Positions 2,370 through 52,321 of a stretch of 64,000 bases of DNA are shown piece after piece. Numbering within the stretch: the first letter of the stretch is position 1; each line of letters starts with the position of its first letter. A program made the position numbers and the translations under genes. The stretch lies in NCBI RefSeq assembly GCF_055900595.2, contig NZ_CM148325.1. One strand, 5' to 3'. The notes under the pieces are model-generated. The model had not been told where the DNA came from, ran no database searches, and saw nothing but the letters and a program-made list of their open reading frames with translations.

Positions 2370-3230
2370 TCACCTGTCGAAAAACACGTAGCCAGTTTTC
2401 GATACGGTGATTGCGGATGATGGTTTGGATTGTGGTTGAATGGTTTCTGGCTTTTCGTCGTTCCAGCGTTGACCGTTCAGGTAGCTCGATGGTAACAACC
2501 TGTCGAATCCGAACTGCTTACCATTCCTGCATGCGATGTCTTCTGCCAACATCGTGGCAAACTCGCTTGCCGTACCCCTGGTAGTTTTACGCCATTCCCT
2601 GAACTGTGTTCTGAATGCCGAAGCTGCGTTTTTCTTCCCGGCTTTCCGCATGCCTGCACACCAGAATATTTCCTCGAATGCCTTGTCGGTTTCTTCGTGA
2701 CGGTCAGGTGATTTTTCACACTCCGTCCGAACACTTTCGGACATAGTGTTTTTATTATTTCTTTTTTCTTTTGTAATAGTTTCTTTTGTGTGTCCCTGTT
2801 TTGGTGACAGCGCTGTCACCATTTTGGTGACACTTTTTGTCACCAATGCAGTGACATTATCACCAGAGTAGTGACACCCTTCGATTTGCCATTCCTCGAT
2901 GTTCTTGTTAGGCCCGATTTGCTGGCCTTCGCGAAGGATAACCTTCATCGCGATAAGCTCATTCTTGGCCTTGTTTACCTTCTGTCTTGGCAGCCTGGTA
3001 ATTTGAGCTAACTGACTATCAGAGATGCGATCCATCTTTTTACCGTAGCCGTATGTTTTACGGCATATGGCGTGGGCAACCTTGCTCTGATTTTTCGTTA
3101 AATCTGCGCCGATAAGCTCTTCATACAGGGCATTTGCAAGACGGGTATAACCATCTTCAACTTCTGCCACACGACGCTCCACAGGCCGTTGTGAAGGCCT
3201 TAAATGTGTTACGGTTGCAAGATTACTCAT
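2370..3230 (-). CDS. Replication initiator, lambda O-family N-terminal domain
   Basis: N-terminal region resembles lambda O (DGYxRL...ADLTK...KTYG...MDRIxDSQL...GPNKNI.EW); iterons lie inside the gene. Confidence 0.75.
2801..2880. repeat. Origin iterons (GGTGACA/TGTCACC repeats) with adjacent AT-rich tract
   Basis: At least 6 direct/inverted GTGACA motifs within 80 bp, flanked by AT-rich 2745..2790, in the initiator linker as in lambda ori. Confidence 0.55.
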
Positions 3231-3369
3231 GACCTTTCTCCTTCTGCATCAGCTTCACTTTTTCCAACTCAGCCCGGAATCGACCAGGCTGCTTGAAGCT
3301 GGACAGGAAGCGATCACGTAGTATGTGTTTGTGAATTTTGTCCTGGTAAGGACTGAGTTGTTTTGTCAT
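3223..3369 (-). CDS. Hypothetical basic 48-aa protein between cII and the initiator
   Basis: [18 protein letters not shown]... with AGGAG SD 6 nt upstream; 3-prime end overlaps initiator start. Confidence 0.4.
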
Positions 3370-3403
3370 AATTACTCCTGTGGATTGATCCAGTCTTTCT
3401 ACA

Positions 3404-3682
3404 TCAGGCCTCGAAGAATTCGCCGTTCTTCGGGGCTTTTTCTTTTGTCAGCATTCTGGCTACTTTCTTAGCCAGTTCCGCCAACTCCTCGTCTTCAACA
3501 CCCCATTCAAGAACAGCCAGAAGCATTCCCATTTTTGGGATGAAGCTGTCTTTCCATCGTGAAATTTGCGATTCATTAATCCCTAACGCGTCGGCCACCT
3601 TTCGCTGACCACGTACAGCAATTCGATTTAGGATGTTGCTTGTAATTGCATTCGCTTTCTTGCGAGTACTTGTAAGTTGCAT
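3404..3682 (-). CDS. cII: CII-like transcriptional activator
   Basis: Matches lambda CII core (SQISRWK...[10 protein letters not shown]). Confidence 0.8.
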
Positions 3683-3801: not shown

Positions 3802-5154
<1,353 letters not shown>

Positions 5155-5179
5155 TCCCCACCTCAATCTCGATAACCAA

Positions 5180-5220
5180 AAACAAACTATTTTTCATTTA
5201 AAAACAATGGAGTTTGTTTT
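5180..5220 (+). terminator. Possible terminator of the immunity transcript
   Basis: Inverted repeat AAACAAACT...AGTTTGTTT followed by T-rich sequence; large loop, weak. Confidence 0.3.
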
Positions 5221-5240
5221 TCACGCCCCTTTTTACAATA

Positions 5241-5283
5241 TTTCTTGTTTACAACATACAATCTTTCTTGTAATTTTAAGCCA
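5241..5283 (+). promoter_or_regulatory. pL-like promoter with left operators
   Basis: TTTACA, 17 bp, TAATTT upstream of a lambda-pL-like transcript start; two TTTCTTGT operator repeats overlap. Confidence 0.5.
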
Positions 5284-5315
5284 TCAGCAGGACGCACTGA
5301 CCACCATGAAGGTGA

Positions 5316-5346
5316 GGCTCTTAAAAATTAAGCCCTGAAGAAGGGC
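5316..5346 (+). promoter_or_regulatory. nutL (boxA + boxB)
   Basis: GGCTCTTAA then GCCCTGAAGAAGGGC, as in lambda nutL. Confidence 0.8.
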
Positions 5347-5544
5347 AGCATTCAAAGCAGAAGGCTTTGGGATTGGATGAATGAGCAGGCTGATGCTCGA
5401 CCAATGTATAAACAGCGCTCATGGCAAGCAGTAACCAATCTGCGCCTCAAGACAGCGTCACTGGTAGTGCGGGCGCTCTAACCAGTAAGCCGGGGTTCAG
5501 CGCCGGCCATCCAATCACCAAAGCTAACTGACAGGAGAATCCAG

Positions 5545-5877
5545 ATGGATGCACAAACACGCCGCCGCGAACGTCGCGCAGAGAAACAGGCTCAATGGAA
5601 AGCAGCAAATCCCCTGTTGGTTGGGGTAAGCGCAAAACCAGTTAACCGCCCTATTCTCTCGCTGAATCGCAAACCGAAATCACGAGTAGAAAGCGCACTG
5701 AATCCGATAGACCTTACGGTGCTGGCTGAATACTACGAACAGATTGAAAGCAACCTGCAACGTATTGAGCGCAAGAATCAGCGCACATGGTACAGCAAGC
5801 CACGGAGTGAAATGGGTGTGACATGCTCAGGCCGCCAGAAGCAACGCGGAAAATCAATTCCGGCTTATTACGATTGA
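5545..5877 (+). CDS. N: Antiterminator N
   Basis: MDAQTRRRERRAEKQAQWKAANPLL..., Arg-rich motif, near-identical to lambda N over most of its length. Confidence 0.92.
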   Translation: MDAQTRRRERRAEKQAQWKAANPLLVGVSAKPVNRPILSLNRKPKSRVESALNPIDLTVLAEYYEQIESNLQRIERKNQRTWYSKPRSEMGVTCSGRQKQRGKSIPAYYD

Positions 5878-5885
5878 GGTGAGAT

Positions 5886-6137
5886 ATGGAATTTCATGAA
5901 AGTGCGATTTGTGATTTTCGCGCTAACGCAAATTCAGTAAAACCACAGCCAATTGCAGTTCTTTTTAAAACAATGGGAGCGTGGGCTGTTTTATGCTTCG
6001 CCTCTGACGACACTGATGCAAGAATGGCAATAGGCCAAGAGATGGAGATGGACCCGACAAACGATGAATTCATAATTTATGGCGCTCCATCTAATTACTT
6101 ACTTGATACCTGCAACATTTACAACAAGGCTGCCTGA
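5886..6137 (+). CDS. Hypothetical protein (83 aa)
   Basis: ORF with GAGGTGAG SD immediately after N. Confidence 0.5.
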   Translation: MEFHESAICDFRANANSVKPQPIAVLFKTMGAWAVLCFASDDTDARMAIGQEMEMDPTNDEFIIYGAPSNYLLDTCNIYNKAA

Positions 6138-6196
6138 TGGTGGCCTTTATTTTTTTGCCGTAAATAATTTCATGATTATTACAATCAAGGTGATAT

Positions 6197-6385
6197 ATGA
6201 AACGTAAATTTGAAATTTGGTTGGATTCCGGAGCAAACATTCACTCTTGCAAAAAGACAGTTGTAACACTCGATGATCTTGGCTTATCCGAGAATGAGTG
6301 GAATGAAATGGATCAGGACGAAAAAGACGAAAACATGCGTGATGTAGCATTTGAAACGCTTGATTGGGGATGGAAGGAAATTTAA
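6197..6385 (+). CDS. Hypothetical small acidic protein (62 aa)
   Basis: ORF with AGGTGA SD; Asp/Glu-rich C-terminal half; followed by a terminator hairpin. Confidence 0.55.
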   Translation: MKRKFEIWLDSGANIHSCKKTVVTLDDLGLSENEWNEMDQDEKDENMRDVAFETLDWGWKEI

Positions 6386-6390
6386 GTGAT

Positions 6391-6416
6391 GGCCGCATAG
6401 TCGGCCTTTATTTTTG
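6391..6416 (+). terminator. Rho-independent terminator
   Basis: GGCCG-CATA-GTCGGCC hairpin followed by T-run. Confidence 0.45.
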
Positions 6417-6624
6417 GCATAAACAACAGAATAAACACAGCACTGTGTATTCATTCCAACGAGTGAATACACGGAGCAATGTCGCTCGTAACTAAACAGG
6501 AGCCGACTTGTTCTGATTATTGGAAATCTTCTTTGCCCTCCGATGTGAGGGCTTTTTTATATGCATACCAATAACGCTTCACTCGAGGCGTTTTCGTTAT
6601 GCAATCAAACAGAAGGAGCATCCT

Positions 6625-6795
6625 ATGCAACAGTTCGCTATTGCAGGGGCGGCATCGGTTCGCCCTTTCAACCCGATTTTATCGGTACAGCATTCACGAA
6701 AAAATATTTTAACCGGAGCAGACTTTAAACAACCAAGAATGAAAAGTTTGCTCGAAAAGCTTTGGGATATTTTGAAACAACAAGGCCGTCCATGA
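6625..6795 (+). CDS. cIII: CIII-like protein (FtsH inhibitor family)
   Basis: MQQFAIAGA... and SLLEKLWDILKQ resemble lambda CIII; AAGGAG SD. Confidence 0.6.
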   Translation: MQQFAIAGAASVRPFNPILSVQHSRKNILTGADFKQPRMKSLLEKLWDILKQQGRP

Positions 6796-6950
6796 GTTTT
6801 ACGGATAACTGGTCAGACGAAGAATTCATTCGTCAGATGAAAGAATTAATCGGTAACGAAGGAGATATTCATGTCACTTGCAACCACAGTGAAGGAGAGC
6901 AAGTTACAGAGACGCATGTACACGCAGAAAGCTCTCTGGTATCGCCATAA
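6792..6950 (+). CDS. Hypothetical small protein (52 aa)
   Basis: ATG overlaps cIII-like stop (ATGA). Confidence 0.4.
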   Translation: MSFTDNWSDEEFIRQMKELIGNEGDIHVTCNHSEGEQVTETHVHAESSLVSP

Positions 6951-7049
6951 TGGCGACCGCGAAGGAATGCGGGTATGCCTTAATTTGTCCCGAGTCGAAG
7001 TATTAAATCAGCGTTATTTCCTTGGGCCATGTCCATTCTGAGGTGATTT

Positions 7050-7757
7050 ATGGATTTGAATAAATTCGATGAGCCATTCAGCCCTGAAGATATCGAATGG
7101 CGAATACAGCAAAGCGGTAAAACACGCGATGGCAAAGTGTGGGCTATGGTGCTGGCTTATGTCACGAACCGGGCAATCATGAAACGCCTGGACGATGTTT
7201 GCGGCAAAGCAGGATGGCGCAATGAATACCGCGATATTCCCAACAACGGCGGAGTTGAATGCGGCATATCAATCAAGATTGATTCCGAATGGGTAACCAA
7301 ATGGGATGCCGCTGAAAACACGCAGGTAGAAGCCGTCAAAGGTGGTCGTTCCGGTGCAATGAAGCGCGCTGCCGTTCAGTGGGGAATCGGTCGGTATCTG
7401 TATAACCTTGAGGAAGGTTTTGCACAAACATCTCTCGATAAAAAGCAGGGATGGCACAGGGCAAAACTCAAGGATGGAACAGGATTTTACTGGCTCCCTC
7501 CATCGCTGCCGGGATGGGCAATCCCAGCATCAGATAACAAACCATCACCAGAAAATACCAACCAGAAATCTCCATCGGTTGACTGCGAACAAATCCTGAA
7601 AGACTTCAGCGATTATGCGTCAACAGAAACTGACAAGAAAAAACTCATCGAGCGTTATCAGCGTGACTGGCAATTAATGGCTGGCAACGAGGAGGCGCAG
7701 GCTAAATGCGTTCAGGTAATGAACATCAGAGTTAACGAACTAAAACAGGCGGCATAA
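7050..7757 (+). CDS. Single-strand annealing protein (Rad52/Sak-like)
   Basis: Motif KGGRSGAMKRAAVQWGIGRYLY typical of Rad52-type annealases; sits where lambda bet would be. Confidence 0.7.
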   Translation: MDLNKFDEPFSPEDIEWRIQQSGKTRDGKVWAMVLAYVTNRAIMKRLDDVCGKAGWRNEYRDIPNNGGVECGISIKIDSEWVTKWDAAENTQVEAVKGGRSGAMKRAAVQWGIGRYLYNLEEGFAQTSLDKKQGWHRAKLKDGTGFYWLPPSLPGWAIPASDNKPSPENTNQKSPSVDCEQILKDFSDYASTETDKKKLIERYQRDWQLMAGNEEAQAKCVQVMNIRVNELKQAA

Positions 7758-8225
7758 ATGTCTCACTTGGACGGAATTATTAAAAGATTCGAGTCCAGCT
7801 ACAAAGTTAATGAAACAACAGGTTGCTGGGAGTCTACCTATTCAAAAAACAAAGGAGGATACACAAAATTTGTAGCCTTTGGCGTAACAATGCTTTCTCA
7901 TCGGGTTGCTTTTGAGCTTTATCACTCCCCCATTCCATCTGGGAAGATGGTTTGCCACAAATGCGATAACCCATGCTGCGTTAATCCTGAACATCTCTTT
8001 TTAGGTAGCGCGCAAGAAAACATGGACGACAAGATAGCAAAAGGAAGGCATCGTGGAGCCAAGAAAGGTCATGCTCATCATGGTGCAAAATTAACAGAGT
8101 GGCAGGTTATAGAAATTAGGAAAAGACTCTCTGAAAAAGAGAGTCAGTACAAGATAGCAAAAGACATGGGTGTATCTCAATCAATTATAAGCAACATAAA
8201 AACTGGCAAGAGGTGGAGCAAATGA
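7758..8225 (+). CDS. HNH endonuclease with C-terminal HTH
   Basis: HRVAFELYH...[23 protein letters not shown] motif. Confidence 0.8.
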
Positions 8226-8728
8226 GTTCTCGCGGGATAAATAAGGTGATTATTCTTGGTCGGGTAGGACAAGACCCGGAAGTTCGATACTCACCATCAG
8301 GAACAGCGTTCGCTAACCTGACAATAGCCACGTCAGAACAATGGCGAGATAAAAATACTGGCGAGCAAAAGGAATTGACTGAATGGCATCGTGTTGCTGT
8401 ATCCGGGAAACTGGCTGAGGTCGTGGGGCAGTATGTGAAAAAAGGTGATCAGATTTATTTCGAGGGAATGCTGAGAACCAGAAAGTGGAAAGACCAGTCA
8501 GGGCAAGACCGTTACACAACCGAGGTTCATGTCGGAATTAATGGTGTGATGCAAATGCTTGGCGGCATTGGCGACAGCAAACAACAAGCATCCAGCAGGC
8601 AATCACAGAAGCCACAGCAGCAATCATCACCAGCACAACACAACGAACCTCCGATGGATTTTGACGACGATATACCCTTTGCACCAGTAACTCTCCCCTT
8701 CCCTCGTCACGCTATTCACGCAATTTAA
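8222..8728 (+). CDS. ssb: Single-stranded DNA-binding protein (phage SSB) with C-terminal extension
   Basis: OB-fold N-terminus, Gln/Pro-rich linker, DDDIPF motif followed by 15 extra residues. Confidence 0.9.
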
Positions 8729-8741
8729 TCAGGAGAAAATC

Positions 8742-9035
8742 ATGCCAGCGCCTCAGTATGGTGCGGATGACCCGCGCCGCTGTTCCGGCAATTCCGTATC
8801 GGAGGTGCTGGATAAATTCAGAAAAAACTACGACCTGATAATGTCGCTACCGCAGGAAACGAAAGAGGAAAAGGAATTTCGCCATTGTATATGGCTTGCA
8901 GAGAAAGAAGAACGCGAGCGAATTTACCAGACATCAATCCGACCATTCCGCAAAGCCACATATACCCACTTCCCTGAAATTGACCCGCGCCTGCGTAATT
9001 ACCGCTCACGCTATGGCGCTATCAGTAATGACTGA
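8742..9035 (+). CDS. Hypothetical protein
   Basis: 97-aa ORF with CAGGAG SD. Confidence 0.5.
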
Positions 9036-9045
9036 GGAATTTACC

Positions 9046-9210
9046 ATGAGAGGACTTGCATACAATCCCGGCATTCTTCCGGCAGAAATGATTATTCGCC
9101 AACGCGTAAAGCCAATGCCATCGAGAGAGGAATTGCTTAAGAGAAATTCTTTTCCATCAGTGTATCAAAACAAATATCTGAATGCAATGTGGCGGAGTGG
9201 GAAGAAATGA
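9046..9210 (+). CDS. Hypothetical small protein
   Basis: Internal ATG with GAGGAA SD; start uncertain (alternative ATG at 9028). Confidence 0.35.
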
Positions 9211-9626
9211 AACAAATGTCACTAATTGAGATGGATGGATTTCTGAAAGGTAAATGCATCCCAAGTGATTTAAAGGTTAACGAAACAAACGCTGATTATC
9301 TGGTGCGTAAATTTGCTGAAGCGGAGGCCAAGTGCGCGGCGCTTGCGGCGGAGAATGAGCTGGCTCGTAAGGCAGTTCAGGCATTCTGCGATGTTGTTGG
9401 CGACAACACCGAGGTTATCGCTGAGGTGGTTGGGCGAGATGGCGTTCTGGTTATTTTGGAGGCCATGAAGGCAACAGGAAATATGCCAGCCACCGATGCT
9501 TTTCTGGCTGAAGTACGGGCGCAGGGTGTTGAATTGTTGCGCGAGCATCCTGCTATCCAGATTTGCTCTTTAACGCACGTATGCGACGAGTTCGCCGCCC
9601 AGCTTCGTCAGGGGGAAGCGGTATGA
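9207..9626 (+). CDS. Hypothetical protein
   Basis: ATGA overlap with upstream ORF; start uncertain. Confidence 0.5.
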
Positions 9627-9940
9627 GCATAGTTGATGATTCACATCTTACAGACGAAGTGGTTAACGCCGCTTTCGAAGGTACCAATTTCGGGCGCACT
9701 GATTTCCGCACCATTCTGGCAGAAACAGTTATGAAGCGTGCTGCTGGCTATCACTCTGGCTACACGGCAACGACTATCTGTATTCGCCTGGGATTGCTTG
9801 GCAAACACGATCGCCCGACAAAACTCGGCCTGACCTTCGCTTTCCATCACTACTACAGGCCATGCGTTCGCGAAGCGCTGATTTCGCATAACAGCCTTGA
9901 AGTATGGGCAAAACTTGGAGCACAGGAGTCCGCCAAATGA
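9623..9940 (+). CDS. Hypothetical protein
   Basis: ATGA overlap with upstream ORF. Confidence 0.5.
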   Translation: MSIVDDSHLTDEVVNAAFEGTNFGRTDFRTILAETVMKRAAGYHSGYTATTICIRLGLLGKHDRPTKLGLTFAFHHYYRPCVREALISHNSLEVWAKLGAQESAK

Positions 9941-10224
9941 GCAACATCAACAAACAGGCGCTGATTGCAAAAATCAAAAAGCAGGCCGAAAGCTTCGACA
10001 CAGTGGTGTTGAGAGAGGATGAAGCTAACGCGCTGCTGGATGAGCTGGAAGCAGCAGAGAAGCGGATTGCTGAACTGGAAGCGCGGGAAATACTGCTCCC
10101 GGAACGTAGCAGCATGCTTCATCGAACAGATTTTCACGATGATTACCAAACGGTAATGGCATACAAAGTTTCTGAAGTCATCGATGCAATCCGCGCCGCT
10201 GGCATTCGTATCAAAGGAGAGTGA
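9937..10224 (+). CDS. Hypothetical coiled-coil protein
   Basis: ATGA overlap; heptad-like LDELEAAEKRIAELEARE. Confidence 0.5.
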   Translation: MSNINKQALIAKIKKQAESFDTVVLREDEANALLDELEAAEKRIAELEAREILLPERSSMLHRTDFHDDYQTVMAYKVSEVIDAIRAAGIRIKGE

Positions 10225-10225
10225 T

Positions 10226-10447
10226 ATGGCTAACTCATTACTTGAAACCTGCAACAACTGGCAGATTCAGAGGGCGGAGATTTTATCTCGCAATCCAGAT
10301 ATGGCAATGACAATTGATAATCTGGACACGCTAATTGAACGGACCGTGCGTTCTGCAATTGATATAGCACATCGAGTGGATTGGGATTTCAGAGAAGCGG
10401 AGCGACTTGCTAAAGAGCAGGCGAAAGCAGCGGGTAAAGGAGAGTGA
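10226..10447 (+). CDS. Hypothetical protein
   Basis: ATG after conserved AAAGGAGAGTGAT junction. Confidence 0.45.
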   Translation: MANSLLETCNNWQIQRAEILSRNPDMAMTIDNLDTLIERTVRSAIDIAHRVDWDFREAERLAKEQAKAAGKGE

Positions 10448-10448
10448 T

Positions 10449-10646
10449 ATGGATAAAAACACCACTGCTTACTGGAGTCTTTCACTTGATACCGAATGTC
10501 CCAAATGCGGCCACAATTTCGATCTGCTTTGCGATGCTGATTTCTGGGAATTTTCTGGAGCAAAACAGGCATGTGAAGAAATAAAAGGTTACGAAACATG
10601 CTGCCCAGAATGTAACCATGAATTTAAAACAGATTTTGTGTATTGA
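10449..10646 (+). CDS. Hypothetical zinc-ribbon protein
   Basis: CPKCG...CCPECN; same AAAGGAGAGTGAT junction upstream. Confidence 0.5.
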   Translation: MDKNTTAYWSLSLDTECPKCGHNFDLLCDADFWEFSGAKQACEEIKGYETCCPECNHEFKTDFVY

Positions 10647-10656
10647 GGCATAACGA

Positions 10657-11466
10657 ATGACCACTTTTACTAAAGAACAATTAATAGAGATAATTAAGCG
10701 CAATATAACGGTTATGGATCGTTATCCTGATTTAGTAACTGCACAAATGGATCTGGAAGTATACAAAATTGCGCTGGCATCACTGGAAGCAGAACCAGTT
10801 GCTTATATTTTCAAACATCCGGCCGGGAAATTATTCTGGGCTTTAACGGATGAAAGCAATAAAGAGCAACCGGACGTTATTCCTGTTTATGCTGACTCAC
10901 CTGCGCCGGTTGTGCCGGATGAAATAGACGTAAACGATGTACCAAGGGCGGTGACATATTTCAAGACACACAGAGATTGTTACGCAGATGGCTGGAACGC
11001 CTGCCGCGCCGCCATGCTTCAGTCCGGAAACTTTCGGGAAAACAAGAATTCGTCAACCAATAATTTTCGGGAAATCGCGGAAACGTCAACCAACTATCCG
11101 GTAATTCCTAGTGAGGTGTTGTCCGCAATCCTGAAGGTTGCCAAGATTCGTGCCGATTTCGATGATTTTGACGGTGACAGGCGAGGTATCGGTGATTGTC
11201 TGGATGAGGCTGAGCAAGAGCTTATCGTTACCATTAACAAATATGCCAGTCAGTTGGCAGCAGAACCGATAGCGACTAATGACGTTCGAGAGCAAACAGC
11301 CGTTCCGCCAGTTCCTGTAATACAGGCTGATGTCGCGCAGGCAATTGAAAAACTCAAACGGAAATTAGTGGAATGCAATCGCTATAACTACTGCGCAGAT
11401 GCAGTTAAGGGCGTTGAGTATGCCTGCCACGCTGCCACGCTGCCACGCTGCCATGCTTCAGGGTAG
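10657..11466 (+). CDS. Hypothetical protein (269 aa)
   Basis: Long ORF; 3-prime end carries the CTGCCACG tandem repeat. Confidence 0.55.
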   Translation: MTTFTKEQLIEIIKRNITVMDRYPDLVTAQMDLEVYKIALASLEAEPVAYIFKHPAGKLFWALTDESNKEQPDVIPVYADSPAPVVPDEIDVNDVPRAVTYFKTHRDCYADGWNACRAAMLQSGNFRENKNSSTNNFREIAETSTNYPVIPSEVLSAILKVAKIRADFDDFDGDRRGIGDCLDEAEQELIVTINKYASQLAAEPIATNDVREQTAVPPVPVIQADVAQAIEKLKRKLVECNRYNYCADAVKGVEYACHAATLPRCHASG

Positions 11467-11857
11467 CCAACCTGTAAGCCAAACTTACAAGTTTCCAGTT
11501 AATACACCTTGCCAGGATGCGCCAGCCCATATCTGGCTGCAAACAGCTGGAGTATGGCCAGAAGATGGCGAGTTAAGCGAATTAACGTGGTGCAGCCACA
11601 ATCAGCACCATGATGACACGCTATATGTTCGAGCTGACTTGGTAAATGGCAATTCTCCGGTAACTCCGGATGGTTGGATAAGCTGTAGTGATCGAATGCC
11701 AAACGAAGAAGATGTTTTGGTTTATTGCTCAGACACTAAAGAGCAGATGGTAGGGTTTCACAAAGGTAAAGGGTTATTTCAATTCTTTTACATGAATGGT
11801 GTTGAGGGGGTATGTGAGCCGTCACACTGGATGCCGCTACCAGAGCCTCCACTTTGA
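11399..11857 (+). CDS. Phage protein with DUF551-like C-terminus; start uncertain (ATG at 11399, 11420 or 11453)
   Basis: C-terminal W.PLPEPP-type motif; no convincing SD at any candidate start. Confidence 0.5.
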   Translation: MQLRALSMPATLPRCHAAMLQGSQPVSQTYKFPVNTPCQDAPAHIWLQTAGVWPEDGELSELTWCSHNQHHDDTLYVRADLVNGNSPVTPDGWISCSDRMPNEEDVLVYCSDTKEQMVGFHKGKGLFQFFYMNGVEGVCEPSHWMPLPEPPL

Positions 11858-11953
11858 AAGCGAAGCTTATACATATCTTTTACATCAGCAATCTATTGTT
11901 AATCTCCAATCAATGTTACGTTGTCATCTCACTCATGCTTTGGAGGTAGTGAT

Positions 11954-12133
11954 ATGTCTTGTCCAAAATGCGGTTCTGGAAATATTGCAAAAGAAAAAAC
12001 AATGCGTGGATGGTCTGGTGATTATGTGTGCTGCGATTGCGGATACAACGACTCTAAAGACGCATTTGGAGAGCGTGGTAAAAACGAGTTTGTCAAAATT
12101 AATAAAGATCGCGAAGGCAACGGAAAAAGCTAA
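11954..12133 (+). CDS. Hypothetical zinc-ribbon protein
   Basis: CPKCG...CCDCG; GGAGG SD. Confidence 0.5.
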   Translation: MSCPKCGSGNIAKEKTMRGWSGDYVCCDCGYNDSKDAFGERGKNEFVKINKDREGNGKS

Positions 12134-12198
12134 TTTATTTATTCATATATGAAAACAATGTAACCAATATTCGAATTGAAGAACTGAAAGAACACCAA

Positions 12199-12220
12199 GC
12201 CGCCTGATGGCGGTTTTTTC
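12199..12220 (+). terminator. Rho-independent terminator upstream of xis
   Basis: GCCGCC-TGAT-GGCGG hairpin followed by TTTTTT. Confidence 0.45.
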
Positions 12221-12246
12221 TTGCGTGTAATTGCGGAGACTTTGCG

Positions 12247-12465
12247 ATGTACTTGACACTTCAGGAGTGGAACGCACGCCAGCGACGCCCAAGAAGCCTT
12301 GAAACAGTTCGTCGATGGGTACGCGAGTGCAGGATATTCCCTCCTCCGGTTAAGGATGGAAGAGAGTATCTGTTCCACGAATCAGCGGTAAAGGTTGACT
12401 TAAATCGACCAGTAACAGGTAGCCTTTTGAAGAGGATCAGAAATGGGAAGAAGGCGAAGTCATGA
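12247..12465 (+). CDS. xis: Excisionase
   Basis: 72 aa, MYLTLQEWNARQRRPRSLETVRRW..., lambda Xis. Confidence 0.92.
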   Translation: MYLTLQEWNARQRRPRSLETVRRWVRECRIFPPPVKDGREYLFHESAVKVDLNRPVTGSLLKRIRNGKKAKS

Positions 12466-13513
12466 GCGCCGGGATTTACCCCCTAACCTTTATATAAGAA
12501 ACAATGGATATTACTGCTACAGGGACCCAAGGACGGGTAAAGAGTTTGGATTAGGCAGAGACAGGCGAATCGCAATCACTGAAGCCATACAGGCCAACAT
12601 TGAGTTATTTTCAGGACACAAACACAAGCCTCTGACAGCGAGAATCAACAGTGATAATTCCGTTACGTTACATTCATGGCTTGATCGCTACGAAAAAATC
12701 CTGGCCAGCAGAGGAATCAAGCAGAAGACACTCATAAATTACATGAGCAAAATTAAAGCAATAAGGAGGGGTCTGCCTGATGCTCCACTTGAAGACATCA
12801 CCACAAAAGAAATTGCGGCAATGCTCAATGGATACATAGACGAGGGCAAGGCGGCGTCAGCCAAGTTAATCAGATCAACACTGAGCGATGGATTCCGAGA
12901 GGCAATAGCTGAAGGCCATATAACAACAAACCCTGTCGCTGCCACTCGCGCAGCAAAATCAGAGGTAAGGAGATCAAGACTTACGGCTGACGAATACCTG
13001 AAAATTTATCAAGCAGCAGAATCATCACCATGTTGGCTCAGACTTGCAATGGAACTGGCTGTTGTTACCGGGCAACGAGTTGGTGATTTATGCGAAATGA
13101 AGTGGTCTGATATCGTAGATGGATATCTTTATGTCGAGCAAAGCAAAACAGGCGTAAAAATTGCCATCCCAACAGCATTGCATGTTGATGCTCTCGGAAT
13201 ATCAATGAAGGAAACACTTGATAAATGCAAAGAGATTCTTGGCGGAGAAACCATAATTGCATCTACTCGTCGCGAACCGCTTTCATCCGGCACAGTATCA
13301 AGGTATTTTATGCGCGCACGAAAAGCATCAGGTCTTTCCTTCGAAGGGGATCCGCCTACCTTTCACGAGTTGCGCAGTTTGTCTGCAAGACTCTATGAGA
13401 AGCAGATAAGCGATAAGTTTGCTCAACATCTTCTCGGGCATAAGTCGGACACCATGGCATCACAGTATCGTGATGACAGAGGCAGGGAGTGGGACAAAAT
13501 TGAAATCAAATAA
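12443..13513 (+). CDS. int: Tyrosine integrase, lambda Int
   Basis: 356 aa; N-terminal arm-binding region and catalytic domain as in lambda Int; overlaps xis. Confidence 0.95.
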   Translation: MGRRRSHERRDLPPNLYIRNNGYYCYRDPRTGKEFGLGRDRRIAITEAIQANIELFSGHKHKPLTARINSDNSVTLHSWLDRYEKILASRGIKQKTLINYMSKIKAIRRGLPDAPLEDITTKEIAAMLNGYIDEGKAASAKLIRSTLSDGFREAIAEGHITTNPVAATRAAKSEVRRSRLTADEYLKIYQAAESSPCWLRLAMELAVVTGQRVGDLCEMKWSDIVDGYLYVEQSKTGVKIAIPTALHVDALGISMKETLDKCKEILGGETIIASTRREPLSSGTVSRYFMRARKASGLSFEGDPPTFHELRSLSARLYEKQISDKFAQHLLGHKSDTMASQYRDDRGREWDKIEIK

Positions 13514-13586
13514 TGATTTTATTTTGACTGATAGTGACCTGTTCGTTGCAACAAATTGATAAGCAATGCTTTTTTATAATGCCAAC

Positions 13587-13601
13587 TTAGTATAAAAAAG
13601 C
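13587..13601. other. Lambda att core (prophage-host junction, BOP-prime type) with int-proximal P-prime arm at 13514..13586
   Basis: Reverse complement reads GCTTTTTTATACTAA; flanking arm reads like lambda P-prime arm. Confidence 0.8.
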
Positions 13602-13647
13602 AGGCTTCAACGGATTCATTTTTCTATTTCATAGCCCGGAGCAACCT

Positions 13648-14931
13648 GTGAACACATTTTCAGTTTCCCGTCTGGCGCTGGCATTGGCTTTTGGCGTGAC
13701 GCTGACCGCCTGTAGCTCAACACCGCCCGATCAACGTCCTTCTGATCAAACCGCGCCTGGTACCTCTTCTCGCCCGATTCTGTCGGCAAAAGAAGCGCAG
13801 AATTTCGATGCTCAACACTATTTTGCGTCCCTGACGCCAGGTGCTGCAGCGTGGAATCCTTCCCCGATTACTCTGCCTGCGCAACCTGACTTTGTTGTCG
13901 GCCCGGCGGGTACTCCGGGTGTAACGCATACCACGATTCAGGCGGCGGTAGATGCGGCAATTATCAAGCGCACCAACAAGCGCCAGTATATTGCCGTGAT
14001 GCCTGGTGAGTATCAGGGAACGGTGTATGTCCCTGCTGCTCCGGGTGGAATTACTCTGTACGGTACAGGTGAAAAACCGATTGATGTGAAGATTGGGCTT
14101 TCCCTTGATGGGAGCATGAGCCCTGCCGACTGGCGTCACGACGTCAACCCGCGCGGCAAATATATGCCAGGTAAACCAGCGTGGTATATGTACGATAGCT
14201 GCCAGAGCAAACGCAGCGACAGTATCGGCGTTCTGTGTTCTGCGGTCTTCTGGTCACAAAACAACGGCCTGCAACTGCAAAACCTGACCATCGAAAACAC
14301 GCTGGGTGATAGCGTAGATGCGGGTAACCATCCGGCGGTGGCACTGCGTACTGATGGCGACAAAGTGCAGATCAATAACGTCAACATTCTCGGTCGTCAG
14401 AATACATTCTTTGTCACCAACAGTGGTGTGCAAAACCGTCTGGAAACCAACCGTCAGCCGCGTACTCTGGTGACCAACAGTTACATTGAAGGGGATGTGG
14501 ATATCGTTTCTGGTCGCGGCGCAGTGGTGTTCGATAATACCGAATTCCGCGTGGTGAACTCACGTACTCAGCAAGAAGCGTATGTGTTTGCACCGGCTAC
14601 GCTGTCTAACATCTATTACGGTTTCCTCGCCGTAAACAGCCGCTTCAATGCTTCCGGTGATGGCGTGGCGCAACTGGGCCGCTCGCTGGATGTTGATGCC
14701 AATACCAACGGTCAGGTGGTGATCCGTGATAGCGCCATCAACGAAGGTTTTAACACGGCTAAACCGTGGGCCGATGCGGTGATTTCCAATCGCCCGTTTG
14801 CGGGTAATACTGGCAACGTTGATGATAACGACGAAGTACAGCGTAATCTGAATGACACTAACTACAACCGCATGTGGGAATACAATAACCGCGGCGTGGG
14901 TAGCAAAGTGGTTGCAGAGGCGAAGAAGTAA
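13648..14931 (+). CDS. ybhC: Pectinesterase-family lipoprotein YbhC
   Basis: GTG start, lipoprotein signal (LTAC), 427 aa. Confidence 0.9.
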   Translation: MNTFSVSRLALALAFGVTLTACSSTPPDQRPSDQTAPGTSSRPILSAKEAQNFDAQHYFASLTPGAAAWNPSPITLPAQPDFVVGPAGTPGVTHTTIQAAVDAAIIKRTNKRQYIAVMPGEYQGTVYVPAAPGGITLYGTGEKPIDVKIGLSLDGSMSPADWRHDVNPRGKYMPGKPAWYMYDSCQSKRSDSIGVLCSAVFWSQNNGLQLQNLTIENTLGDSVDAGNHPAVALRTDGDKVQINNVNILGRQNTFFVTNSGVQNRLETNRQPRTLVTNSYIEGDVDIVSGRGAVVFDNTEFRVVNSRTQQEAYVFAPATLSNIYYGFLAVNSRFNASGDGVAQLGRSLDVDANTNGQVVIRDSAINEGFNTAKPWADAVISNRPFAGNTGNVDDNDEVQRNLNDTNYNRMWEYNNRGVGSKVVAEAKK

Positions 14932-14946
14932 AAGCGATTAACTTTT

Positions 14947-15150
<204 letters not shown>

Positions 15151-49880: not shown

Positions 49881-50332
49881 AATCAATCGAATATGTTAAT
49901 TATGTATAAATCATAGACCATTGGTAATTTTATTGTTAATTTATTGTGAAATATTTACGTAACACAATTATTACAATAAAAAGACATAGATAAAAAACCA
50001 GTGTTTTATTTAACAGAATCGCCTTATCAACTTTTTATAATACCAATTGATTAGAGTAGCCAATTTGTTGCTATTTTACATAACATATTTTTATCAAAGT
50101 TAATTGATTGTTGCCTTTATGAGCATCGCCGTAAGACCGCCATGTTATTGTTTCATTTGTAATAATCACCAATAAGTATCGATGAGAGAGATATCGCTTA
50201 ACAGAGGCGACTGTGTCTGCATGAACACAGGCACTTTCGTCTGATAAACGAAAAATGAGCGATTTTTGCAAGTTAGTTTTTCTATAGCCGGGTACGCTGA
50301 GCGCCTCGCTTGATTACAATGAGGTTGCTGCC

Positions 50333-51277
50333 ATGGGTCTTGATAATATAGGTTATGTTGTCAATCGCTTCTCTGGTTGGCCATCAAATGATCCTCTAAA
50401 AACAGATAACGAATCAATGACATCACCCGTGACTGTGCAGGTAATAAAGTTGATTGCCGCCATCCTTGACCCACATCGGATAGTCGTTGGTATCGATACA
50501 CTTTATACAACGCAGCGCAAAACATTTACCTCAGAGGGTCAACAACTCATTGAATCAGCATTGAAAACACTTAATGTGATGAATTTAAATAACCTGGAAA
50601 CAGATCGCGATGAGGAGGGTAACTATCTGGCTTTTGGATATAACGTTGACACTCCTGACAGAATAACCGTTTCTGCTTATAATGAAAAAAAACCTTTCTG
50701 TTATGGCCAATGTCTTTTAATACAGGATGAAGAACCAGATTTATTTAACCTGGTAAAAATTAAAACCTTTGAAGCCAGGCATAATTATGTTTCTAAATTG
50801 ATGAGCGATCCGGAATTTATGTTTAAATTCAGTTATAGCACCCAACAAAATAGATTAGAACCTCATCTTCTGGTTCCCACTTATTTCCCTCTAAAAACAA
50901 ACCAACCGGTTACGCTAGAGGATGTACTGATACTTTATCGTTTCTTTAAAATGAATGGCGATTTTAATATATTAACATCAGATGAATACATGAGTATCAT
51001 GACACCTCTGATGAAGTGTGAGCGTAGTGTCCACGACCATAACAGGTATGTGACGGGCAAAGATGCTCTTCTTCTGGACAATCCTCCGTCTGGTAACCAG
51101 ATATATTTCCATATTTCCCCTGACGAATCAGCAACACTTGTCCTTTATTTTTCAGACAATAACCTTGAATCCTTCGTCTTTGAAAATGATATTCCGAGCC
51201 AGTATCGACATTTCAAAATGTTTACCAATTTAGCACTAGTTATTGATCAGTTAACCGACGCCAATCAAATACTTTAA
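50333..51277 (+). CDS. Hypothetical protein (314 aa), AT-rich
   Basis: Long ORF with GAGGT SD; no recognised motif, TM segment or signal peptide. Confidence 0.6.
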   Translation: MGLDNIGYVVNRFSGWPSNDPLKTDNESMTSPVTVQVIKLIAAILDPHRIVVGIDTLYTTQRKTFTSEGQQLIESALKTLNVMNLNNLETDRDEEGNYLAFGYNVDTPDRITVSAYNEKKPFCYGQCLLIQDEEPDLFNLVKIKTFEARHNYVSKLMSDPEFMFKFSYSTQQNRLEPHLLVPTYFPLKTNQPVTLEDVLILYRFFKMNGDFNILTSDEYMSIMTPLMKCERSVHDHNRYVTGKDALLLDNPPSGNQIYFHISPDESATLVLYFSDNNLESFVFENDIPSQYRHFKMFTNLALVIDQLTDANQIL

Positions 51278-51356
51278 TTTTCTATACAGCCCTGTGTAAA
51301 ATATTGCTAATCAGTGCCCGGGGTTGATTTTTATTCCTCACGGTGATATTTAAATC

Positions 51357-51779
51357 ATGACCCCATCTCAGCTCTCTTTTAATACTCTTCCTGTCAATGC
51401 AACATGCACTTCAGAGATAACAGTAAACACACAAAAATTCTCTGACATCCTCTACTCAGTGGGGTATTCCCTAAAGGATCTGGCTTATCTGAGCAGATGT
51501 CTTGCATCATTACACCCGACACTCGCCAAAAACATTTATGAAACGGAAAATCTCAGCGATCAAAAATTACTTTATATAGATTGCCGTAGTACAAATGAAA
51601 TCAAGATAAATATCTTTTTTGGTCAGCAACGAGAAGGATTAATTGAAATTAGTTCTGACACAGTCATTTTTTCGATACTGTCTTCATTGATTGACTCAGC
51701 TATTTCTGAACATCGACATCAAATCACCATTAACGATTCAAATAATTCTGAACTATTTTATGAGGATTATACTGATTAA
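51357..51779 (+). CDS. Hypothetical protein (140 aa), AT-rich
   Basis: ORF directly downstream of the 314-aa ORF, same strand; no recognised motif. Confidence 0.55.
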   Translation: MTPSQLSFNTLPVNATCTSEITVNTQKFSDILYSVGYSLKDLAYLSRCLASLHPTLAKNIYETENLSDQKLLYIDCRSTNEIKINIFFGQQREGLIEISSDTVIFSILSSLIDSAISEHRHQITINDSNNSELFYEDYTD

Positions 51780-52321
51780 ATCCACTCTGTGCGAACCTGT
51801 CCTGCATTTATGCCAGAAGTATTAGAATCTTTGATTAACGTTACTCGTACTGGTAGCACCTTCATGTGCCTCTCTTTTTTACGAACAATCAAAAGAACTA
51901 ACAAAGGGCATAATTCGTATAAATCATTAACCATTTGTTATATTCAACATTTTTTTACATTAAGCAGAGATGAATTGCAGTGAAATTCAAGTTAAATTTT
52001 ACAAAATGTATTACTCATGGCTAAAAAATCTCCCCAAAATGCAAATTAGAAGTTGATCACAATTATCTCAATACATCAAATAAAGTTAATTTTAAAAATT
52101 TAACATTCATGACATTAGTTGACATAACACGCTGAATTAAAATGAGAATTTAAAAACACACTTTAAACAATCATTTCCCGAAAGACATTTTGAAAATAGA
52201 TCAATTGCAACATTACGGTCAGATAAAGACACTCCTCTGATATTAAACCTGTGCCGTTATGAACGGCCATAAATACGACGTGTGTAACTTAATTTACTCT
52301 CTGTCTTACAAAGGATTACCC

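Follow-up and report, generated by a model that had tools for sequence, protein, structure and literature searches.

Lambdoid phages carry accessory genes between their recombination genes and xis, and what these "ea" and exo-xis genes do has been a question for decades. In P22 the series is abc2, orf56, eaE, orf45, eaF, eaD, eaI, eaA, eaG and eaC, in HK620 it runs from hkaJ to hkaD, and in HK629 from gp38 to gp32. In operon position and gene order these series correspond to the run of small open reading frames (ORFs) analyzed here, which occupies positions 8742-12133 of a 64,000-nt stretch of contig NZ_CM148325.1 (assembly GCF_055900595.2; "the window" hereafter means this whole stretch) and lies between ssb and xis of a prophage.

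Several genes of such regions have described functions. P22 Abc2 attaches to RecC and diverts RecBCD to phage recombination, and its Pro68 enters the active site of PpiB (PMC9836394). In July 2026 the first anti-defence activity was reported from the slot that ORF3 occupies in our run: HK446 gp27, named Oad2, binds OLD directly and inhibits P2 OLD, an abortive-infection nuclease whose trigger is gp33 of HK75 and HK446; the same study relates Oad2 to P22 EaE and terms the recombination locus an anti-defence hotspot (bioRxiv 10.64898/2026.07.10.737580). The exo-xis region of lambda and the Stx phages (orf60a, orf61, orf63, ea22, ea8.5, orf55) is the positional equivalent between recombination genes and xis, and is early-transcribed, non-essential and mosaic; there Ea22 favours lysogeny, and orf60a, orf61, orf63 and ea8.5 favour lytic growth (PMC7093339, PMC3824215, PMC10834534). 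In the Rac prophage, the small zinc ribbon encoded between the recombination genes and xis is RalR (Lar), which alleviates restriction and is a type I toxin.

The present locus shares most with P22 and HK620, to which it is related through Abc2 (94% identity), the DUF2737 protein (74-98%) and EaG (92-95%), as well as through ORF3, a relative of EaE and HkaH. The junction of HK629 that leads from Eag to lambda xis-int is 99% identical to that of the prophage, the annealing protein, SSB and gp33 of HK75 recur in it at 99.6%, 98% and 92% identity, and its terminator, pI promoter, xis and int are lambda-type. In contrast, P22, HK620 and HK446 all lack counterparts of ORF4, ORF6 and ORF7, and eaF, eaI, orf45 and eaC of P22 are absent from the block. 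Compared with P22, HK620 and HK629, the middle segment of ORF3 differs, the Ead gene is cut to 95 aa, and the EaA-like gene, which encodes 402 aa when intact, is longer and carries a frameshift. The region 8742-12133 is thus very probably an "ea" accessory segment of the P22/HK620 type, located at the far end of the early-left (PL) operon, which N antiterminates. Taken alone, the block is unremarkable, a mosaic of phage families already catalogued, and represents a new mosaic member of the known P22-type ea regions.

A run of nine genes in a lambdoid prophage

The int gene (12443-13513) is of lambda type, with 99% identity to lambda Int, and xis (12247-12465) is 98.6% identical to that of lambda; since these two genes adjoin the host gene ybhC, the element is a lambdoid prophage at lambda attB, and it is HK629/HK75-like. 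The closest genome is the chromosome of E. coli EC332, which is 99.9% identical to a 7.1-kb query (window 6500-13600) spanning the block. On the + strand, which is that of the early-left operon, small ORFs take up the whole of 8742-12133, with ssb (8222-8728) on one side and xis on the other. Counting only ORFs of 55 aa or more, 97.8% of this strand is covered, against a mean of 22.4% (sd 9.6%, maximum 50.9%) in 500 shuffled sequences. All ten ORFs match PHROG families (E-values 1e-27 to 1e-80), and antisense ORFs of 82-134 aa match none; the coverage and these matches together indicate that the run is real. An NCBIfam search of the ORFs returned noise-level matches only. The ORFs are as follows.

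8742-9035, + strand: ORF1, abc2 (anti-RecBCD protein 2) by similarity, 97 aa; PF11043, phrog_656
9046-9210, + strand: ORF2, DUF2737 protein, 54 aa; PF10930
9207-9626, + strand: ORF3, EaE / HK97 gp37 / Oad2 family, 139 aa; ATGA overlap with ORF2 at 9207-9210
9623-9940, + strand: ORF4, 105 aa; weak winged-helix-like model
9937-10224, + strand: ORF5, short protein of predicted Ead/Ea22 type, 95 aa; leader MSNINKQAL, short coiled coil, C-terminal domain
10226-10447, + strand: ORF6, 73 aa; phrog_10585 (E 1.2e-42)
10449-10646, + strand: ORF7, 65-aa four-cysteine zinc ribbon with CPKC and CPEC motifs; phrog_4173
10657-11466, + strand: ORF8, 5' part (269 aa) of a split EaA-like gene; phrog_14306, phrog_60
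11453-11857, + strand: ORF9, 3' part of the same gene, with C-terminal DUF551; PF04448
11954-12133, + strand: ORF10, EaG, 59-aa zinc ribbon; phrog_2945; 92% identity to P22 EaG and 95% to HK620 HkaD

From ORF1 to ORF10 the junctions are, in order, +10, ATGA, ATGA, ATGA, +1, +1, +10, -14 and +96 nt. The claim of an initial annotation of this DNA that most of the ORFs are joined by ATGA was therefore overstated, as such overlaps occur at three of the nine junctions (ORF2/ORF3, ORF3/ORF4 and ORF4/ORF5). Two others have the form TGAnATG (ORF5/ORF6 and ORF6/ORF7), two are 10-nt gaps, one is a gap of 96 nt, and the ORF8/ORF9 overlap is a frameshift artefact. Shine-Dalgarno sequences are present at eight starts and absent at that of ORF9, and together with the short gaps and overlaps they would couple eight of the nine genes translationally. 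The ten tightly coupled ORFs originally described between ssb and xis thus hold up as a run, though one of nine genes, because ORF8 and ORF9 are a single 402-aa ORF in EC332.

ORF8 and ORF9 are one gene split by an octanucleotide repeat

The window and EC332 differ over the 7.1 kb by one 8-bp unit, CTGCCACG, and one base in int, and by nothing else. The extra unit of EC332 fuses ORF8 and ORF9. It belongs to a tandem repeat whose copy number sets the reading frame:

11424-11457, no strand assigned: octanucleotide tract (CTGCCACG)3CTGCC; Tandem Repeats Finder, period 8, 4.2 copies

Alleles of this tract were found with one to four full units.

1 full 8-bp unit: 18 IMG/VR phage contigs; open for >140 codons in the 16 loci of sufficient length
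2 full units: one plasmid of roughly 100 kb; stop within 17 codons
3 full units: the window and strain 90-1; stop within 17 codons
4 full units: EC332; open for >140 codons

Most full-length matches in a 301-bp search of E. coli had the one-unit length (285 bp), and 20AR1039 had the length of EC332. Strain 90-1 carries the three-unit allele in a different, degraded prophage, so that the frameshift is no assembly error peculiar to the window. Residues 1-84 of ORF8 resemble the N-terminus of P22 EaA, and the C-terminus of ORF9, which matches PF04448 at 69.1 bits (cut-off 22), resembles the C-termini of P22 EaA and HK620 HkaE; no Shine-Dalgarno sequence precedes the ORF9 ATG. The best matches of the 402-aa form in a representative search were proteins of 412 and 418 aa at 77% identity, and a PDB sequence search with the fused protein returned no match. 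As judged from these sequences, ORF8 and ORF9 are one EaA-like DUF551 gene, apparently turned off here through repeat slippage. The tract may serve as a contingency-type switch, or it may be no more than a mutational hotspot. Inside ORF8, at 11029-11093, there is also an imperfect 33-nt tandem duplication that encodes NFRENKNSSTN and NFREIAETSTN.

Abc2 and a member of the Oad2 family

ORF1 matches PF11043 over its full length (213 bits, cut-off 25, positions 1-97 of 97) and phrog_656, annotated "abc2 anti-RecBCD", with an E-value of 1.2e-54. It is 91% identical to chain A of PDB 8B1T, the P22 protein solved on RecBCD, and 94% identical to P22 Abc2; Pro68 is kept, and the IRPFRK motif is conserved. 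By these matches ORF1 is Abc2, so that the earlier statement that no function could be assigned to any of the ORFs was wrong in this case. Given its 91-94% identity to the P22 protein, ORF1 would bind RecC and turn the host RecBCD into a helper of the phage annealing protein and SSB. ORF2 matches PF10930 at 103 bits (cut-off 25) and is 98% identical to HK620 HkaI and 74% identical to P22 Orf56. Its ATG at 9046 is preceded by AGGA at a distance of 8 nt; an alternative ATG at 9028, which would add six residues, has no Shine-Dalgarno sequence. In the collection of papers searched, DUF2737 was not mentioned.

The top PHROG family of ORF3 is phrog_614 (E 2.6e-46), which is also the top family of Oad2, HkaH and P22 EaE. 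ORF3 is 47% identical to Oad2 (pairwise E 6e-30) and 52% identical to HK629 gp35. With Oad2 it has in common the N-terminal 38 aa, the EAKC..AAEN coiled coil, a 13-residue motif and the QLRxG tail. Furthermore, it occupies the same slot as its relatives in HK446, HK75, HK620 and P22, directly after the DUF2737 gene, which it overlaps, and downstream of abc2; ORF2 and ORF3 are the conserved pair of a DUF2737 protein and an EaE/Oad2-family protein. The prophage also encodes a relative of the reported trigger:

6792-6950, + strand: gp33 homologue, 52 aa; 92% identity to HK75 gp33 over 52 aa

This ORF is unannotated (PGAP made no call for it in EC332), and it has an ATGA overlap with the stop of an upstream 56-aa ORF. 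With it and ORF3, the reported trigger and the family of the reported inhibitor are both represented in the prophage. On the model of HK446 Oad2, ORF3 would bind and block a host immune protein that senses interference with RecBCD, such as the OLD-type ATPase-TOPRIM nucleases. We regard ORF3 as a tentative but serious candidate for a defence inhibitor of some kind; that its target would be P2 OLD itself is improbable.

In the widest form of this idea, the operon would combine provocations of RecBCD-guarding immunity with the antidotes to it. The gp33 homologue and Abc2 would trigger sensors of the OLD, retron or Gabija type, ORF3 would be an inhibitor with a new target specificity conferred by its middle segment, further inhibitors would be found among the DUF2737 protein, ORF4, ORF6, ORF7 and EaG, and the octanucleotide tract would perhaps be a reversible switch. 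We consider this full scheme rather unlikely. A series of observations weighs against the main interpretation of the block and its genes. First, the HK75 homologue of Oad2 (gp28) is inactive against OLD in spite of 54% identity to Oad2 (bioRxiv 10.64898/2026.07.10.737580), so that membership of the family, or similarity to Oad2, does not predict activity. Second, ORF3 matches phrog_614 at positions 27-148 of 214 only, with 149-211 missing, and its middle segment is unrelated to that of Oad2, so that the two proteins are not colinear from end to end; at 139 aa against the 175 aa of HK446 Oad2, ORF3 lacks about 60 profile positions. Third, a PADLOC scan of all ten ORFs (E up to 0.01) returned no defence-system family, ORF3, ORF4 and ORF6 included. 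Remote-homology searching, which the initial annotation had proposed, assigned every ORF to a PHROG family, and Pfam at a permissive E of up to 5 stayed empty for ORF3, ORF4 and ORF6, as it did for the gp33 homologue. Fourth, relatives of ORF4 are also present in Klebsiella and Serratia prophages, in accessory regions of the early-right "nin" type, so that the recombination locus is not the only home of this family. Fifth, PGAP calls ORF5 a pseudogene with a missing N-terminus and part of ORF8 a pseudogene as well, so that some members of the block may be decaying. Last, the lambda genes between exo and xis have been linked to the lysis-lysogeny decision and not to defence (PMC7093339, PMC10834534).

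Taken together, the general idea that this early-left region serves host takeover and anti-defence is partly borne out by the anti-RecBCD protein ORF1 and by ORF3 in the Oad2 slot; the block is nevertheless a recognised P22/HK620 "ea" set rather than ten unknowns, and an anti-defence function can be assigned, by similarity to P22 Abc2, to ORF1 only. The prophage presents a natural variant of the Oad2 family whose middle segment has been swapped, next to a gp33-type trigger and Abc2, and it is thus a ready test case for the determinants of inhibitor specificity. A screen of the block is narrowed accordingly to nine genes instead of ten, of which one is explained, one has a specific hypothesis and one has natural on/off alleles.

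ORF4 to ORF7 and the lysis-lysogeny decision

The family of ORF4 is well conserved in the Enterobacterales, and its members are either stand-alone proteins or the N-terminal domain of Ead/Ea22-like proteins. A structural model weakly suggests that ORF4 may be winged-helix-like, and its nearest viral structural neighbours are uncharacterised proteins. The occurrence of its relatives in nin-type regions indicates that small modules circulate between both accessory hotspots of lambdoid phages. In those regions the ORF4 relatives (loci L030-L033) adjoin genes for Ead_Ea22 proteins, a DNA methylase, a dATP/dGTP pyrophosphohydrolase and Lar-like proteins.

ORF5 has the MSNINKQAL leader and the coiled-coil motif EAAEKRIAELEA, and lacks the central region of ~140 aa; over its last 63 aa it is 90% identical to the C-terminus of HK620 HkaG. 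It scores 18.7 bits against PF13935 (Ead/Ea22-like), below the cut-off of 27. In view of these motifs ORF5 is a predicted miniature Ead/Ea22 protein.

This likeness bears on another explanation, namely that the genes of the block modulate the choice between lysis and lysogeny and are not anti-defence factors, as in the exo-xis region of lambda and the Stx phages. The block has the same position, from the recombination genes to xis, and both ORF5 and the domains to which ORF4-family proteins are fused are of the Ead/Ea22 type. However, no protein of the lambda cassette was matched: in tblastn searches of window 4000-13600 (E up to 0.01), orf60a, orf61, orf63, ea22 and ea8.5 gave no match, and the only lambda proteins matched were N, Xis and Int, besides 25 aa left over from orf55. 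In addition, ORF5 stays under the Pfam Ead_Ea22 cut-off and is without a long coiled coil, and the role of ORF1 clearly lies in recombination and anti-RecBCD activity. We therefore hold this explanation possible but doubtful. It is compatible with an anti-defence function of the block, and the two are not mutually exclusive.

ORF7, with two CxxC pairs, is one of the two zinc-ribbon proteins that had been recognised in the run from the outset, and this observation was correct, the second being ORF10 (also with two CxxC pairs). The ORF7 family is narrow, being found in E. coli and one Klebsiella phage. ORF6 and ORF7 travel together: the pair recurs in E. coli APEC 102026 (NZ_CP087290.1; positions 3014-3434 of locus L027) with 97% identical DNA, and in ORF7 six codon differences from that copy are synonymous and two non-synonymous. 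The APEC 102026 copy lies in a non-lambdoid island, surrounded by an STY4528-family replication protein, DUF2786 and DUF2857 genes and Ead/Ea22 fragments. ORF4 to ORF7 and ORF10 are individually exchangeable small modules, and, more speculatively, their products would probably bind host factors.

Mosaicism of the segment

The whole arrangement is present in one of 5,426 complete E. coli genomes (EC332), and fragments of the ORF3-ORF7 segment are present in 1,651. A 21-nt junction sequence, AAAGGAGAGTGATATGG, occurs both at ORF5/ORF6 (10213-10233) and at ORF6/ORF7 (10436-10456), with a shorter copy at the start of EaG (11948-11959); it encodes the C-terminal KGE, the stop, the ribosome-binding site and the next ATG. 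Within ORF8/ORF9 the "AAMLQ" linker sequence is repeated. It is plausible that these junction and linker repeats are sites of module exchange. At the distal end of the block, lambda-type DNA starts near 12160. What is left of the final 25 codons of lambda orf55 (12130-12204, 68% identity) marks where recombination joined the P22-type eaG segment to lambda-type DNA.

Such remnants raise the question of whether most of the block other than abc2 is prophage cargo in decay, left behind by recombination among ea modules and no longer under selection. The ORF8/ORF9 frameshift, the resemblance of ORF5 to an internally deleted Ead protein together with its PGAP pseudogene flag, the orf55 remnant, and the presence of the arrangement in only one other complete genome would all fit such decay, as would one synonymous and five non-synonymous differences between EaG and its P22 counterpart, which are small numbers. 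On the other hand, coding density is 97.8%, and eight genes retain their starts, Shine-Dalgarno sequences and coupling; each ORF matches a recurrent phage family, that of ORF4 being strongly conserved across the Enterobacterales, and substitutions in ORF1, ORF2 and ORF7 are biased to the third codon position. Moreover, the split gene exists in frame as the 402-aa form of EC332 and has the relatives of similar length described above (412 and 418 aa, 77% identity). We judge extensive decay to be distinctly unlikely.

EaG and the overlapping frame

EaG resembles RalR of Rac as a small zinc ribbon placed between recombination genes and xis, with 30% identity and a pairwise E of 0.001. Homology of EaG to Lar/RalR was considered and rejected: EaG scores 23.2 bits against PF14354, below the cut-off of 28.6, its tested homologues score 14-23, and RalR itself scores 53.5. 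The HVO_2753 and TFIIB zinc-ribbon models score EaG as high as the Lar model does, a generic likeness, and a PDB sequence search with EaG gave marginal zinc-ribbon matches only (best E 0.044).

The comparison with RalR bears on a further explanation, in which the block would provide defence, exclusion or toxin-antitoxin functions that are expressed from the prophage and shield the lysogen, EaG for example acting like the Rac RalR/Lar toxin. Its basis is the weak score of EaG on the Lar model and the similar placement of RalR, from recT to xis in Rac. It has to be set against the PADLOC scan, in which no defence family appeared, and against the Lar scores, which are below the cut-off in EaG and in every tested homologue and are equalled by other zinc-ribbon models. 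The genes also sit in a repressed early operon, and the region has neither an internal promoter above chance nor an Rfam RNA: the Rfam scan of 8742-12250 found no RNA family, and no antisense RNA like RalA was detected. A role of this kind appears highly unlikely; it and the decay of the block are both weakly supported, and we retain the interpretation of the block as a P22/HK620-type accessory segment.

In another frame, an ORF of 118 aa extends over the end of ORF9 and all of EaG (11796-12152); it scores 60 bits to phrog_2945 and is open in HK620 and partly open in P22. It probably reflects a frame mis-called in some phage annotations of this family, as the DNA is ~95% conserved and a Shine-Dalgarno sequence and the cysteine motif are present in the EaG frame alone; a true overlapping gene is less probable.

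Transcription signals and neighbouring genes

A LexA-family repressor gene lies upstream of the block, as do the antitermination signals of the operon and its recombination module.

5332-5346, + strand: nutL boxB, with boxA-like GGCTCTTAA upstream; N-utilisation site of the early-left operon
5545-5877: N gene, 93% identity to lambda N
7050-7757, + strand: Rad52/Erf-type annealing protein; PF04098; 99.6% identity to HK75 gp32
7758-8225, + strand: HNH endonuclease with HTH tail; PF13392
8222-8728, + strand: SSB; PF00436; 98% identity to HK75 gp31
12197-12216, + strand: terminator hairpin, followed by a T run; from the terminator scan
12221-12234, + strand: cII box TTGC-N6-TTGC of the pI promoter, directly after the terminator hairpin and upstream of xis

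The nutL region is identical to that of lambda apart from one boxA base. The terminator scan placed several terminator-like hairpins at 6126-6592, between N and the recombination module, and otherwise only the hairpin at 12197; the block itself is co-directional and without an internal terminator. Promoter-like matches in 4000-13700 showed no excess over shuffled sequences, and no internal promoter signal rose above chance. The record of phage 434 (OL657226) labels the elements that match 12197-12234 as terminator, pI and cII site. With lambda-type N and nutL, polymerase starting at PL would cross the upstream terminators, the recombination module, the ea genes and the terminator before pI and xis, and the block would form the far end of the PL transcript, made at an early stage of infection or induction.

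In HK75 the annealing-protein and SSB genes are adjacent, with no HNH gene between them; as these flanking genes are otherwise 98-99.6% identical, the HNH gene of the prophage looks like a homing-endonuclease insertion. Just past ybhC, window 14936-15144 contains a cluster of naRNA4 (REP-type) elements, one of which is at the Rfam gathering score (71.9 bits). Farther along, the G+C content falls to 36% at 50001-52000, compared with about 50% elsewhere in the window, which suggests another horizontally acquired segment.

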